DNA of 64,000 nucleotides from Candidatus Woesearchaeota archaeon (GTDB lineage Archaea > Nanobdellota > Nanobdellia > Pacearchaeales > GW2011-AR1): the NCBI GenBank assembly GCA_964366325.1, contig CAYITD010000002.1, positions 100,548-164,547 on the forward strand. The letters run 5' to 3'. Made by a program: the position numbers and the translations under genes. The notes beneath the pieces are model-generated. The model saw nothing but the letters and a program-made list of their open reading frames with translations, searched no databases and was not told the origin of the DNA. This document shows, one piece after another, positions 47,185-51,022 of this stretch (its first letter is position 1; each line of letters begins with the position of its first letter).

Positions 47185-47331
47185 CCCTCCGTAGCTCAGT
47201 GGTTAGAGCGTCTGGCTGTAGAATAGCGCAGACATTCCTCTATATTGAGGACAAGAATGAAGCGTAAGAAGCCTACCTTCAAGTGGTTTGCAGAACCCGG
47301 AAGATCCCCAGTTCGATTCTGGGCGGGGGGA
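47185..47331 (+). tRNA. tRNA-Tyr(GTA) with a 74-nt intron at 37/38 (47222-47295)
   Basis: Acceptor stem CCCTCCG/CGGGGGG + A73 (C1:G72), D arm GCTC/GAGC, anticodon stem TCTGG/CCGGA, BHB helix CTGT/GCAG with bulges AGA and AAC, T arm CCCAG-TTCGATT-CTGGG. Confidence 0.93.
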
Positions 47332-47400
47332 TATCTCTATATGTGAAACATATAGAATTAATTCTATCAAGAATTAAACAGTGCAAACTCAAACATTCTT

Positions 47401-47478
47401 CCCAGTTCGATTCACTTCAATGCGTAAGTATTGAAGTTACCAGGAGCTTTGCTCACGAGTATGGGTGGGGGGATTTTT
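47401..47478 (+). repeat. Copy of the tRNA-Tyr 3' end interrupted by a 48-nt structured insert (R1)
   Basis: cccagttcgattc (47401-47413) + insert (47414-47461) + tgggtgggggga (47462-47473); matches tRNA 47307-47331 at 24/25 once the insert is removed. Confidence 0.85.
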
Positions 47479-47515
47479 CACAAATTATATAAACCTCATT
47501 TTATCTTAATTAAAC

Positions 47516-47731
47516 ATGCAAAACGAACAAATAATTATGAATAAACTAGATGTAATAAAGGCAGAACTTGATTACATAAAAGAACATATGGTTGATGTAG
47601 ATACTATTCTAACTTCTGAAGAAGAAGAAATATTAGAGCAAAGTATAAAAGAATTTAAAGAAGGAAAGACCACCTCTTTAGAAGAACTTGAAAAAGAGAG
47701 GGAAAATGCTAAATATAGAGTTTTCAAATAA
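47516..47731 (+). CDS. Putative antitoxin of the RelE pair
   Basis: Small acidic protein, DTILTSEEEE...SIKEFKEGKT.SLEEL; overlaps the toxin start. Confidence 0.8.
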   Translation: MQNEQIIMNKLDVIKAELDYIKEHMVDVDTILTSEEEEILEQSIKEFKEGKTTSLEELEKERENAKYRVFK

Positions 47732-47963
47732 CTCTAAAAAATTTCTTGAAAATTGTGATGATAAATTGTACAACCGGCTAAATGAAAAGATAAAAGAATT
47801 AGCTCTCGATCCATATCCTAAAGACAGGAAAAAAGTTGAAGGGAGAAAAGAAAAATTATTCAGGGTAAGAGTCGGCAACTACAGAATTCTCTATATTGTT
47901 TTTAGTGATAAAAATACATTATTAATCTCAGATATAGACAAAAGAGATTCCGTTTATAATTAA
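47706..47963 (+). CDS. relE: RelE/ParE-family toxin
   Basis: IEFS..SKKFL, L..DPYP, KKVEG, FRVRVGNYRILY, IDKR..VY. Confidence 0.9.
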   Translation: MLNIEFSNNSKKFLENCDDKLYNRLNEKIKELALDPYPKDRKKVEGRKEKLFRVRVGNYRILYIVFSDKNTLLISDIDKRDSVYN

Positions 47964-47975
47964 ATTCTTAAACAG

Positions 47976-48016
47976 CAGAACAGAAAAATTTTATTCGGGT
48001 TAGGTTGGGGGATTTT
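47976..48016 (+). repeat. Degenerate tRNA-3'-end-like repeat (R2)
   Basis: cagaacagaa...ttcgggttaggttgggggatttt, similar to R3 and to the 3' part of R1. Confidence 0.7.
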
Positions 48017-48447
48017 CACTCCATATAATCTTCTTCCTCAATCTCATCTAATAAATCTTTAACACCATAAATTTTGATTTCTTTCTGTTTATTAAAATGG
48101 TCATCAAAAGACCATATTCCATCTGCATTTATTGCTAAAGCTGTTGCAACGAAAGAAGAATCTTTAATATCTATATCTTTCATTATCTCTTCTGCTTTTT
48201 CCAAATATGGTTTTATTTCGGCTTTTGAAACGAGGGTTATACTATCCAACAATAAATCTCGCAATTTTCCAAATTCCTCTTTAGTATATCCAGATTTTGC
48301 TGTTAATTCTATCCTATATTTCTCAATTTCTTCAAGAGCATCTTCTGGCAAAAAGAACTGGAATTTTTTAGATATCAAAATCTTCCTAACAGTAGAGTCT
48401 CTAATCAATCCTGCAATTAGAACATTAGTATCAATTACTCTTTTCAT
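48016..48447 (-). CDS. vapC: PIN-domain (VapC-like) toxin
   Basis: [29 protein letters not shown]. Confidence 0.9.
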
Positions 48448-48664
48448 CCTTTAATCTAGCATATAACCCTTTTTTTATTTTTTCATTAATTTCTTCAACA
48501 TCTTTCATAGTTAATTTACTCTTTGAGGCAATTTTATCCATAGTTTCTAATTTCCTTACCTGTTCAACTATTGCTGCTCTAGCTACTTCGCTCCATCTCA
48601 TTTCTCTATGTTTTTTCATAACTACATACACTTCCTCTGGTATTGATAATGTTACATTGGGCAT
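48431..48664 (-). CDS. RHH-type antitoxin (VapB-like)
   Basis: [11 protein letters not shown]....MKKH.E..WSEVAR.AI. Confidence 0.85.
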
Positions 48665-48674
48665 TTTTCTTCTC

Positions 48675-48695
48675 TGTGATATCACATTAATCACA
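48675..48695 (-). promoter_or_regulatory. Operator palindrome of the vapBC operon
   Basis: tgtgatatcaca (48675-48686) plus an extra atcaca half-site (48690-48695), between a TTTAAA box and the ATG. Confidence 0.65.
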
Positions 48696-48718
48696 TATTT
48701 AAACTTTTCTATAATCTC

Positions 48719-48761
48719 CAGAACAGAACGCTTTCGTTCGGGTTAGGTGAGGGGGATTTTT
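48719..48761 (+). repeat. Degenerate tRNA-3'-end-like repeat (R3)
   Basis: cagaacagaacgctttcgttcgggttaggtgagggggattttt, containing a gaacg-cttt-cgttc hairpin. Confidence 0.7.
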
Positions 48762-48828
48762 ATCTAGATAAATTGTTTAAACTATCATTTAACACAACAA
48801 TTAAATAATCTCCATAATTAAAAAAGAA

Positions 48829-49314
48829 ATGAAGACAGACACAAAAATATTAAGTGATTATCTATCCAGAGCGTTAGCACAACAACAAGAACTCATAAGA
48901 CTTGCAGATACAAAAGCCAGTGTTGTCTTGACCTTAATAGGAGTTATTCTCTCTTTATTTTTCAACTATTTTATTTCTAAAAATTCAGTTTCAATAATTC
49001 CAATAATACTCATAATCTCTTTGTTCGTAATCTCTGGTTTATTCTCATTCATCGCTATATATCCAAGAAAAGGGAATTCAAATGAAAAAAACTCTTTGCT
49101 TTACTACGGCTCAGCAAAAAATATTCAAAAAAATTTCCTGTCTCCTTTAATAAAAAATGAAGAAGAAAAAATAATTTCTGATTACGTAGAAAACGTAAAA
49201 TCCATAGCTGGAATAGTAGAAAAAAAATTTAATTTTCTTAGATACTCATACATCTTCCTCGCAATCGCAATCTTAATAAAAATAATAGTAGAATTCTCGT
49301 CATGGATTAAATAA
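48829..49314 (+). CDS. Pycsar effector-like membrane protein (DUF5706/PycTM-like)
   Basis: IRLADTKASVVL, TM helices, AIYPR, SLLYY, I...KF..LR.S plus C-terminal TM. Confidence 0.75.
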   Translation: MKTDTKILSDYLSRALAQQQELIRLADTKASVVLTLIGVILSLFFNYFISKNSVSIIPIILIISLFVISGLFSFIAIYPRKGNSNEKNSLLYYGSAKNIQKNFLSPLIKNEEEKIISDYVENVKSIAGIVEKKFNFLRYSYIFLAIAILIKIIVEFSSWIK

Positions 49315-49487
49315 ACTGCGAATTAATCTCTACAAGGTGGCAGTAAAAACCGTCGATAATTTGGTTTAAAAACACTCTCGTGGTTAAAAATGCAATTTGA
49401 AAAATGAACTTTGCAAAGATTATATCGAAAAAAGAAAAACATTTAAATACTAGAATTATCTGAATAAGAAAGAGGTCGGACAAATAT

Positions 49488-50321
49488 ATGATAATTAAAG
49501 AAGAATTTTTGAGCAGGCTAAGAAAAATATTTGACCTCAACCTCTACGAAGCTAGAGTATGGACTGCTCTTCTCTCTCGTGGTGTTTCTACCGCAGGAGA
49601 ACTTAGTAACATTTCTGATGTACCAAGATCAAGAACTTATGATATATTAGAGTCTTTAGAAAAGAAAGGGTTCATAGTTATGAAGATAGGTAAACCAATA
49701 AAATTTGTTGCATTGAAACCTGAAGAGGTAGTTGAAAGAGTTAAGAAGAATTTAGTTATAAATGCGAATGAAAAAGCTAAAAGACTTGATCAATTAAAAG
49801 AAGATGATGTACTTGATGAACTTACAGGTTTATTCGAGAATGGTGTCAAGTTTGTCGAACCATCTGACTTATCAGGAAGCCTAAGAGGAAGACAGAATAT
49901 GCATAATCATCTAGATATGATGATTAGAAATGCAGAAAAAAACATAACCATAGTTACTACAGAAGATGGTTTAAACAGAAAGTTTGAAGCTTTAATGCCT
50001 TCTTTAGAAAAAGCAAAAAAACGTGGTGTTTCTTTGAAAATAGCTGCCCCTATAACAGAAAATAATATTAAAGTAGCAAAAACGCTATCTAAAATAGCAG
50101 AGGTTAGAGACACTTCAACTAAACCAATAAAGGGCAGATTTACAATAATAGATGAGCAACAACTCATGTTAATGTTAACAGATGATAGCAACGTTCATCC
50201 TAATTATGATGTAGGAGTTTGGATATCAACAGACTACTTTGCCAAAGTAATGAATAATATGTTCGAAAGTACCTGGAAAGATCTTACACCTTTAGCAAAA
50301 CTTAAGGTCAAAGATAATTAG
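49488..50321 (+). CDS. TrmB-family transcriptional regulator
   Basis: LNLYEARVW..LL, TAGELS..SDVPRSRTYDILESLEKKG, P.KF.A..P. Confidence 0.92.
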   Translation: MIIKEEFLSRLRKIFDLNLYEARVWTALLSRGVSTAGELSNISDVPRSRTYDILESLEKKGFIVMKIGKPIKFVALKPEEVVERVKKNLVINANEKAKRLDQLKEDDVLDELTGLFENGVKFVEPSDLSGSLRGRQNMHNHLDMMIRNAEKNITIVTTEDGLNRKFEALMPSLEKAKKRGVSLKIAAPITENNIKVAKTLSKIAEVRDTSTKPIKGRFTIIDEQQLMLMLTDDSNVHPNYDVGVWISTDYFAKVMNNMFESTWKDLTPLAKLKVKDN

Positions 50322-50416: not shown

Positions 50417-51022
50417 CTACGTTTCTCTATGGATAATAATTATATCCTCATCTGTTCCCTGAGCTTTTCTTGCTTCTTCAAAAATTTCTCTTTTAATTGG
50501 TAAAAAAAGTCTAGGATCATCCAATCCATGATTATGAACATACATATTCTCGTCATCGTATCCTACAATTGGAACAAAATGACCCTGATAACCTTTTTCT
50601 CTTGTACCTTTTACAATGTTCCAATCCAACAAAATTATAGCAATACTATCTTCACTTATTTTCTGCAAAAGTTCTTCTAAAGACATTACTTTTTTCTCTA
50701 CCATTACTCCTGCAGTTTTAGCATCCTCAACTATTTGTTTAGATTGTTGAATAGCATCAGAATACCTTTGATAAAACTCAAGTTTTAAGTTATCTTCATT
50801 AAAATAAATATGTTTAGAAAAGAAATCAGTCTTATATCCTAACGAACTTGCCACAGTCGCTAATTGAATTGTACTTACTCCTTTGCCTTCTTTTATTCCT
50901 GTTCTTTGTTCAAGAACATCTAAACTTACCTCTTGACCAAAGTATGCTAAAACCATTCGTAATGCTACGGGACCACAATTAAGCTTGGTGGTTTGCTTGT
51001 AAAAAGGAACTTCCAATCTCAT
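50417..51022 (-). CDS. C39-like cysteine peptidase
   Basis: VPFYKQ...NCGP.AL.M, GHFVPIVGYD. Confidence 0.85.
   Translation of the reverse strand: MRLEVPFYKQTTKLNCGPVALRMVLAYFGQEVSLDVLEQRTGIKEGKGVSTIQLATVASSLGYKTDFFSKHIYFNEDNLKLEFYQRYSDAIQQSKQIVEDAKTAGVMVEKKVMSLEELLQKISEDSIAIILLDWNIVKGTREKGYQGHFVPIVGYDDENMYVHNHGLDDPRLFLPIKREIFEEARKAQGTDEDIIIIHRET

Follow-up and report, generated by a model that had tools for sequence, protein, structure and literature searches.

The single tRNA-Tyr(GTA) gene in the genome of a Candidatus Woesearchaeota archaeon is followed by a tandem array of small toxin-antitoxin (TA) and defence gene modules, which are separated by short repeats of the 3' part of that tRNA. 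The repeats are restricted to this site, are conserved in four species and part different genes in each of them. The array lies in a stretch of 64,000 nt (C2:100548-164547), hereafter called the window, with positions counted from its first nucleotide. It belongs to genome G000 (1.05 Mb in 20 contigs, 32% G+C, estimated 88% complete), and the genomes of relatives are referred to as G001, G004, G015, G018, G020 and so on. Intron-bearing tRNAs and TrmB-type regulators mark G000 as archaeal, and its small genome would fit a DPANN-type organism. Judging from the sequences compared below, we give about an even chance to the reading that the tRNA 3' end is a site-specific insertion hotspot with retained att-like repeats, at which units would have accreted in the manner of bacterial cis-mobilizable elements (CIMEs) by means of a recombinase encoded elsewhere.

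Repeats of the tRNA-Tyr 3' part and the genes between them

An initial annotation had given the order of features as tRNA-Tyr, R1, a RelE-type pair, R2, an inverted VapBC pair, R3 and a Pycsar-like effector, which proved correct by Pfam and PADLOC (Table 1). The anchor of the array is the sole tRNA-Tyr gene among the 37 tRNAs found in G000 with the Rfam tRNA model and with aragorn allowing for introns. The proposed derivation of the repeats from the 3' end of the tRNA was borne out by better-kept copies in relatives, and their motifs proved locally unique. When motifs were counted on both strands of the 1.05-Mb genome, GGGGGATTTT was matched three times, exactly in R1, R2 and R3 and always on the tRNA strand, and TTCGGGTTAGGT, with up to one mismatch, twice, in R2 and R3 only; all these matches fall within 1.3 kb. 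The motifs are thus unique to the tRNA-Tyr locus in G000, which rules out that the repeats are a generic terminator found genome-wide, the finding that the initial annotation had named as a refutation.

In R1, 13 nt of the T-arm (CCCAGTTCGATTC) are copied exactly; a 48-nt insert is followed by TGGGTGGGGGGA, which departs by one mismatch from the 3' strands of T-stem and acceptor of the tRNA (12 nt). R2 and R3, which we assign to a second class of repeats (class C), are identical to each other at 36/42 positions and differ from the last 12 nt of the tRNA by 2-3 changes. Taken alone, their likeness to the tRNA 3' exon is modest, with a score of 9 compared to 5.6 +/- 1.1 for 20,000 random genome 47-mers, a fraction of 0.016 of which score at least as high. 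The better-kept copies in relatives make the descent of R2 and R3 from the tRNA 3' half clear at the level of sequence: class C repeats align with the 3' exon of the tRNA, starting near position 41 and reaching its end, and in both G020 copies the final 12 nt of the tRNA are unchanged. In repeat Rb of G018, the CTTGG T-stem variant of its own lineage (present at 3/20 tRNA-Tyr loci) is joined to the shared 5' arm AAACACTTTCATTC, which is how an attR hybrid would look. Direct, same-strand repeats of the tRNA 3' part hence bound the inserted DNA, in the case of R1 by direct comparison and in the case of R2 and R3 via the relatives' copies. In addition, the tRNA-Tyr genes of relatives end directly in ...GGGGGGATTTTT, and a G-run followed by a T-run recurs at the end of each repeat of the window, where the tRNA itself is followed by ATATCTC and lacks the T-run that directly abuts tRNA-Tyr in several relatives. 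Since the G-run and T-run stand at the repeat ends in place of the tRNA's own T-run, each repeat can be read as a displaced tRNA end with its native terminator.

Class C repeats are about 45 nt long (38-47 nt) and unstructured. A model built from six of them and searched in 21 genomes of the genus gave 7 strong matches (E <= 2.2e-6) in four genomes, namely two each in G000, G018 and G020 and one in G015, as well as a weak partial third match in the G020 array (E 0.08). All of them lie 0.5-3.5 kb 3' of tRNA-Tyr. G001, the only relative that is colinear with the window, carries two copies at corresponding positions, both of them very degenerate. The pattern TTCGGGTTAGGN{0,3}GGGG was found in 0/300 other genomes of the family, only 3 of which are from the genus, and the 11-mer TTCGGGTTAGG is not enriched in the genus (7 matches vs 11 for the reversed control), its matches in G003 and G009 being without G-run and T-run. 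Scans of viral contigs for the repeat pattern yielded 6 matches, all unrelated by context and G+C; among metagenome contigs, at least 80 loci (81 matches) were obtained, of which 4 passed a loose filter and the one inspected was unrelated.

Between species, class C repeats are identical at 29/43 to 38/44 positions, and within a genome at 33/41 to 39/45. For comparison, the conserved TrmB gene has 73-77% nucleotide identity, and the sequences flanking the repeats cannot be aligned. All copies, from G000, G018, G020 and G015, share TCGGGT(T/A)AGG, a derived state unlike that of every tRNA-Tyr. By this sequence comparison, the repeats are under some constraint, staying alike while their surroundings change. 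RNAalifold found no conserved pairs in the six repeats, and no Rfam family was matched by R1-R3, only tRNA reaching threshold; the sole other match at E <= 1 was a chance-level RnaG (28.6 bits vs a gathering score of 153). Of the small hairpins that had been pointed out in R1 and R3, those of R1 are significant (fold z = -4.5, computed with the spacer) and that of R3 is neither significant (z = -1.3) nor conserved; the same lack of significance holds for R2 (z = -0.6).

The genes between the repeats differ from array to array. Read outward from tRNA-Tyr, the window has a class A element (R1, see below), the ParE-type pair, R2, the VapBC-type pair, R3 and PycTM. The order in G001 is a 121-aa membrane open reading frame (ORF), a repeat, a frameshifted PIN remnant with a 109-aa ORF, a repeat and TrmB; in G018, it is two ORFs, repeat Ra, a HicB-like ORF with a winged-helix-like ORF and an 87-aa ORF, and repeat Rb. 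G020 has a 403-aa and a 55-aa ORF, repeat Rc1, a 221-aa ORF, repeat Rc2, an 86-aa ORF with a winged-helix-like ORF, and a partial repeat, and G015 a 108-aa ORF, a repeat, a 99-aa ORF with a weak YoeB-like ORF, and an exact 13-nt tRNA copy with T-run. The modules are different in all five arrays, and tblastn of 11 module proteins of G001, G018 and G020 against G000 gave no match. The 403-aa protein beside tRNA-Tyr in G020 is also without Pfam match and without homolog in G000. Upstream of tRNA-Tyr, the first ORF of G015 resembles that of the window by eye.

A structured element beside many tRNA genes

R1 had been taken initially for a degenerate repeat like R2 and R3. Its sequence indicates that it is not simply such a repeat, but a separate structured element, here called class A, that is found beside many tRNAs. 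It is laid out as a copy of the T-arm 5' strand and T-loop, hairpin 1, TACC, hairpin 2 (partly decayed) and GTA, after which follow the copy of the T-stem 3' strand and acceptor 3' strand and T5. Class A elements are about 75 nt long, lie 3' of tRNA genes and close with a copy of that tRNA's 3' strand. R1 is probably transcribed jointly with tRNA-Tyr, because the T-run of the tRNA is displaced to the end of R1.

The 3' flanks of tRNA-Tyr were compared at 20 loci (the window and 19 relatives), 9 of which carry a structured insert of 110-150 nt that ends in a copy of the own tRNA's 3' strand. Class A inserts, with the order T-loop-like sequence, hairpin 1, (T/A)ACC, hairpin 2, GTA and tRNA copy, are present in the window, G017, G011 and G004, and another insert, which differs from class A but closes in the same manner (class B), is present in G003, G006, G007, G008 and G012; the other 11 loci have neither. 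The spacer region of the window (47308-47421) matches by BLAST the flanks of intron-less tRNA-Tyr genes in G011:C3 and G004:C21. Intron-less tRNA-Tyr genes occur in three genomes of the genus (G011:C3, G004:C21 and G015:C4), and the introns at the other 17 loci (the window and 16 relatives) measure 56-111 nt by aragorn. In G004, two class A elements, the second one decayed, bracket a module of an ORF, a PIN gene and another ORF 3' of tRNA-Tyr.

The covariance model of class A (model R1), searched in 151 genomes of the order, had matches in 22, all of one family: besides G000, they comprise 21/105 other genomes of that family and 0/45 genomes of eight other families. Seven matches including R1 are located in G000. 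Four of them lie 12-24 nt 3' of tRNA-Phe, tRNA-Trp, tRNA-Asp and tRNA-Ser(TGA), one follows a displaced tRNA-Gly(GCC) 3' end, and the match at tRNA-Leu(TAA) is weak and inverted. Of 27 loci scanned in relatives, 20 have the element on the strand of a tRNA, of nearly any isotype, and at most about 100 nt 3' of it, 4 have it beside an oppositely oriented tRNA and 3 have no tRNA nearby. In 41 aligned copies, 94.7% of the cells pair compared to 72.8% in shuffles, compensatory changes occur at 19/21 pairs, and the covariation score is 0.62 vs 0.21 in shuffled alignments (0/500 reach 0.62) and <=0.12 with slid partners, figures that are favoured by the fitting of the alignment to the model.

The tRNA segment duplicated by class A has a fixed start just after the T-loop and a length of 12-32 nt. 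Near-identical cores are found at tRNA-Phe and tRNA-Trp, each with the repeat of its own tRNA, which argues for duplication of the target and not for a repeat carried by the element. Arrays of mini-units, each closed by a tRNA copy, were seen in G155, G017 and G057. In G057:C4 (locus L061 1412-1705), at least 3 tandem class A units with a period of 89 nt reach the contig end, and each of these units holds the reverse complement of a tRNA 3' end from T-loop to acceptor. Just ahead of several of the other class A copies in G000 is a short stretch with complementarity to the T-loop and the 3' strand of the T-stem. Further small hairpin units of G000, which close with CAGA and a tRNA copy, stand after tRNA-Glu (two genes) and after a tRNA labelled 'Pyl' (cta) by aragorn. 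For the 37 tRNAs of G000 together, a downstream copy of the last 13 nt (<=2 mismatches) is present at 11, within 73-209 nt in 9 cases, and no upstream or inverted copy was found; two of the 11 bracket the integrase-bearing elements of 6 and 8 kb treated below.

Class A was rejected as a derivative of IS200/IS605, the ends of the sole Y1 TnpA element of G000 being unlike it by eye and without a match to model R1, and as a TnpB guide RNA or casposon remnant, since neither a TnpB-type domain nor Cas1 was found in G000. The genome also has three matches to reverse transcriptase (RVT_1; C2:13972-14610, C1:178220-178636 and C2:64670-65002), the first of them 1.7 kb from a tyrosine recombinase gene (C2:11833-12300).

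Gene modules of the window

The coordinates of the array are compiled in Table 1. The gene modules measure 0.5-0.7 kb each, lie in both orientations and apparently have a TATA-like box of their own, that is, promoters predicted by sequence.

Table 1 Features of the tRNA-Tyr array and class A copies elsewhere in G000. Positions are those of the window unless a contig is named; Pfam cut-offs are 23 bits for ParE_toxin and 27.2 bits for PycTM.
Feature	Position	Strand	Evidence or remark
tRNA-Tyr(GTA), array anchor	47185-47331	+	~77-nt intron; Rfam RF00005 49.5 bits, aragorn
Spacer tRNA-Tyr to R1, 69 nt, two hairpins	47332-47400	+	fold z = -4.5 with R1
R1, class A element	47401-47478	+	80.9 bits with model R1
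Promoter-like block, TTATATAAAC ~20 nt upstream of ATG	47481-47515	+	sequence, BLAST to G018
71-aa ORF, presumed antitoxin, cassette 1	47516-47731	+	no family above cut-off
ParE/RelE-superfamily toxin, cassette 1	47706-47963	+	Pfam ParE_toxin 5.5e-8, 33.7 bits
R2, class C repeat	47971-48017	+	unstructured and diverged, copied from the 3' half of tRNA-Tyr and the T-run
VapC-like toxin with PIN domain, cassette 2, facing opposite to the repeats	48016-48447	-	Pfam PIN_2 1.1e-24, 87.6 bits
87-aa ORF, presumed VapB-type antitoxin, overlaps PIN gene start	48431-48694	-	no family above cut-off
R3, class C repeat	48715-48761	+	37/44 identical to G015 repeat 3' of tRNA-Tyr
PycTM-type two-transmembrane effector, cassette 3	48829-49314	+	Pfam PycTM 2.3e-11, 44.5 bits; PADLOC 1.3e-23, 82.1 bits
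Right border, G001 colinearity resumes	49321-50321	+	blastn of window
TrmB-family regulator gene	49488-50321	+	Pfam TrmB 4.6e-19
Class A copy (Phe)	C1:3627-3702		next to tRNA gene
Class A copy (Trp)	C1:138461-138543		next to tRNA gene
Class A copy (Ser-TGA)	C5:14533-14607		next to tRNA gene
Class A copy (Asp)	C6:28666-28741
Class A copy (displaced Gly-GCC end)	C16:7080-7153
Class A copy (Leu-TAA, inverted)	C12:20931-20999

The 71-aa ORF and the ParE-type gene have the make-up of a type II TA system, a toxin domain with a small upstream overlapping partner, and the 87-aa ORF and the PIN gene that of VapBC, a PIN toxin with a small upstream partner; in both pairs, the partner is without family match. 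The former pair is kept in G013:C9 with 77% nucleotide identity over 47516-47963. At this closest homologous locus, the homology covers the coding part only and there is no tRNA nearby; the pair (locus L043 2930-3660) is flanked by three direct copies of GGGGAGTT within 710 nt and is inverted relative to them. The promoter-like block (CAAATTATATAAACCT...AAACATG, window 47481-47518) has 87% identity over 37 nt to G018:C12:9901-9937, located after repeat Ra. It precedes unrelated genes, the ORF partnering the ParE-type toxin in the window and the HicB-like ORF in G018; its full 15-mer occurs only twice in G000.

As to the third module, a PycTM effector is present as in Pycsar systems, but no pyrimidine cyclase lies beside it. 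Class III cyclase (PF00211) had no match in the whole G000 genome, which is 88% complete, and the PycTM gene therefore stands alone. A 201-aa protein encoded at 50417-51022 on the minus strand, about 1.1 kb from PycTM and between the TrmB gene and a thioredoxin-like gene, matches Pfam Guanylate_cyc_2 (1.6e-25) and also three C39-type peptidase families, and is not a Pycsar-type cyclase. This gene is not at the same place in G001, which makes it another indel.

Origin of the array and comparison with known systems

In the mechanism that we propose, the 3' end of the single tRNA-Tyr gene would be a site-specific insertion hotspot and the array would have grown by repeated insertions, each of which would have left a copy of the tRNA 3' part as an att-type repeat, while the previous 3' end would have been moved outward along with its T-run terminator. 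Two kinds of DNA would have been inserted, the ~75-nt non-coding class A element, represented by R1, and the 0.5-0.7-kb gene modules parted by class C repeats. The latter repeats are read as recombination sites, recognised still or until recently, because their sequence was kept across species while the intervening genes were exchanged. Both recombination as the mechanism and its action in trans are what we infer: a recombinase encoded elsewhere would act on the class C repeats, as in the integrase-less accretion of CIMEs in bacteria.

Insertion at a tRNA 3' end, the kind of event proposed, does happen in G000. An integrated element of ~6 kb at tRNA-Gly(GCC) (C16:7163-13265) and one of ~8 kb at tRNA-Leu(AAG) (C1:177873-185908) each have a gene for a tyrosine recombinase close to the tRNA and, distally, a same-strand copy of the tRNA's last 13 nt; the latter element also holds the reverse transcriptase gene at C1:178220-178636. 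At the array itself, the absence of an integrase, as claimed initially, holds: there is no PF00589 match in the window (those of its contig are at C2:11.8 kb and C2:29 kb) and no integrase family among the scanned array proteins of G001, G018, G020, G015 and G004. Neither was a recombinase-like gene found in the 2 kb upstream of tRNA-Tyr in the window, G015 and G001. The genome-wide search for tyrosine recombinases that the initial annotation had recommended returned 6 matches above cut-off in G000 (one Xer-like at C1:167935-168405 with 161 bits, two at tRNA genes and three elsewhere), none of them linked to the tRNA-Tyr repeats; a serine recombinase was not found in G000. Excised or empty forms were not seen in the assembled contigs of 4 DNA runs, which says nothing for or against mobility. 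The runs containing the window sequence are groundwater metagenomes, and no RNA run was listed among them. One contig of another sample spans 47193-49534 unchanged, the R2 junction (47941-48095, 1 difference) is present in a run of another study, and the only joints in contigs are at the tRNA intron and probably come from tRNA-Tyr genes of other organisms with other intron lengths.

Several observations weigh against the proposed accretion in trans. More than 70 kb separate the array from the closest integrase genes, no recombinase is tied to the repeats, and G020, which has the best-kept array and is 92% complete, has only one detectable tyrosine recombinase, which is Xer-like. Two integrases of relatives were rejected as cognate enzymes since no tRNA-Tyr repeat lies beside them, that of G003:C15, 22 kb from tRNA-Tyr, and that of a probable provirus in G015 (C4:41934-44966, with large terminase subunit and tyrosine integrase), 7-9 kb past the G015 array. 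The G015 integrase is only ~25% identical to those of G000, and an 11-nt repeat-arm match nearby is a very common word. This provirus is followed by a membrane protein gene and a seryl-tRNA synthetase gene, the latter being also the downstream neighbour in G018. A further point concerns the breakpoints. Alignment of related loci had been suggested as a check, and gene content indeed varies between the same repeats in G018, G020 and G015 and between degenerate ones in G001, an outcome in favour of the initial reading. Relative to G001, 2/4 breakpoints are at repeats and the others are not. The left-hand homology breaks off with the 3' end of the tRNA and sets in again <=13 nt after R2. That on the right fades within the PIN gene, whose ortholog in G001 is a frameshifted remnant, and returns 7 nt past the PycTM stop (49321), about 28 nt past the second G001 repeat, where the window is without repeat, so that both the fade within the PIN gene and the lack of a right-hand repeat at PycTM run counter to the proposal. 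The two-gene module common to G018 and G020 lies in opposite orientations relative to the repeats, which simple directional site-specific insertion does not predict. Class C repeats show no clear excess of likeness within over between genomes, and recent multiplication or homogenisation is thus not supported. Finally, R2 and R3, given their 2-3 changes in the last 12 nt, may no longer be usable sites.

Alternatively, the repeats could be dead relics, that is, attR scars of larger integrase-bearing elements that entered an ancestor of the genus and were mostly deleted, with TA pairs surviving by their resistance to loss, nothing moving today and no recombinase acting in trans. We consider this unlikely, but deserving of serious attention: classical integrase-bearing elements exist in G000, as seen at tRNA-Gly(GCC) and tRNA-Leu(AAG), R2 and R3 are degenerate in their tRNA-matching part, the G001 array is decayed in its PIN gene and its repeats, the assembled contigs contain no excision joints, and bacteria offer well-described cases of decayed elements in tandem at tRNA genes (PMC5704250). 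Neutral scars, however, should not stay 67-86% identical over four species in which TrmB has only the identity given above and the flanks are unalignable, nor should they keep the derived TCGGGT(T/A)AGG in all four. Moreover, five arrays with different content require many independent gains at one site after the repeats arose.

Conservation could also stem from a role in transcription or RNA processing, with the repeats kept as terminators, insulators or processing signals and the genes turned over by unrelated means. The T-run with which the tRNA gene closes in relatives is present in every repeat, R2 starts 8 nt past the stop codon of the ParE-type gene, and R1 is structured and RNA-like, with GNRA-type and UUCG-type loops, strong covariation and a probable place on the tRNA-Tyr transcript. 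Such a role is quite improbable, as the class C repeats are without conserved structure and all repeats face the way of the tRNA although cassette 2 is on the opposite strand. R3 lies at the promoter end of cassette 2, to which R2 offers an A-run and not a T-run. A terminator would also need no conserved 5' arm (GAACACTTTCATTCGGGTTAGG), and it would leave the restriction to tRNA-Tyr unexplained.

Integrons are marked by an intI integrase gene with attI beside the first cassette, and their attC sites are imperfect palindromes that fold as single-stranded hairpins (R''-L''...L'-R') and have the R' core consensus GTTRRRY. A true integron cassette array without integrase, a cluster of attC sites lacking integron-integrases (CALIN), would match the small TA-rich cassettes, the short repeats and the missing integrase of the window as well as GTTAGGT in R2 and R3, and archaea, Nanoarchaeota among them, are reported to have CALINs and TA-rich cassettes (PMC9668308), but it is very improbable here, since the 38-47-nt repeats are tRNA-derived, form no imperfect palindrome with a hairpin (0 conserved pairs, folds no better than shuffles) and depart from the consensus in G018 (GTTAGGA), G020 (GTTAGGG) and G015 (GTAAGGT), and since the modules lie in both orientations, each with a putative promoter. 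The term 'integron-like' used in the initial annotation is for these reasons, and for the lack of IntI beside the site, not appropriate in the strict sense; as a whole, that reading is partly supported.

Beyond the site-specific accretion at tRNA-Tyr, it is conceivable, though doubtful, that the family has an undescribed machinery that inserts DNA at tRNA 3' ends and duplicates their last 12-32 nt. Its cargo would range from 75-nt structured elements to defence cassettes of one or two genes, tRNA-Tyr would in this genus have become a platform functionally like an integron, with unstructured, tRNA-derived sites and without a dedicated neighbouring integrase, and the enzyme could be the host Xer-like recombinase or something unrecognised. 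Little is known of the ways in which small symbiotic archaea, with their tiny genomes, acquire and exchange defence genes. If the proposed accretion is true, one tRNA gene serves as a landing pad where species swap TA and defence genes by means of short tRNA-derived sites. This would amount to a second, independent answer to the problem solved by integrons and would help to locate accessory genes in archaeal genomes that are fragmentary. The class A element stands alone as a finding, with its occurrence in 22/151 genomes, its strong covariation and no Rfam family, and bears on the long-standing question of the origin of insertions, introns and fragments in archaeal tRNA genes. Searches of the full-text literature listed no paper on tRNA-anchored arrays of mini-cassettes in DPANN-type archaea or on a family of structured elements 3' of archaeal tRNA genes.

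The tRNA-Gly(GCC) and tRNA-Leu(AAG) elements of G000 bear the same signature as the array, a downstream copy of the last 13 nt on the same strand, but are 6 and 8 kb in size and have a tyrosine recombinase gene, which the tRNA-Tyr array lacks. Among other archaea, partial tRNA copies beside intact tRNA genes are explained by integration of mobile DNA in the model for tRNA-Thr of Caldiarchaeum (PMC3293823), and tRNA fragments of Thermococcaceae are ascribed to the same kind of event (PMC9897764). Those insertions carry a recombinase and measure ~1.8 kb or more, compared to integrase-less mini-modules and a 75-nt element at many tRNAs here. With integrons and CALINs (PMC9668308), the array shares small cassettes rich in TA and defence genes, short repeats and often no integrase nearby. 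It differs from them in repeats that descend from the tRNA 3' half and are without attC hairpin, in a tRNA gene as anchor instead of attI/intI, and in cassettes with putative promoters of their own in either orientation. In the CIMEs of the ICESt1 family of Streptococcus, direct repeats of the target-gene 3' end bound each unit; integrase-less units keep attL and attR, new units enter an existing att site so that arrays build, and the recombinase acts in trans (PMC5704250). The units here are smaller, 0.5-0.7 kb with one or two genes or ~75 nt and non-coding compared to kilobase-scale islands, the host is an archaeon with a small genome, the repeats, conserved across species, represent a diverged variant and not fresh copies of the target, and the 21 genomes of the genus yielded no integrase-bearing element cognate to tRNA-Tyr. 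The likeness lies in att-type sites that are retained without integration genes, here in a form conserved across 4 species, and the proposed reading matches accretion of CIMEs (PMC5704250) more closely than an integron (PMC9668308).

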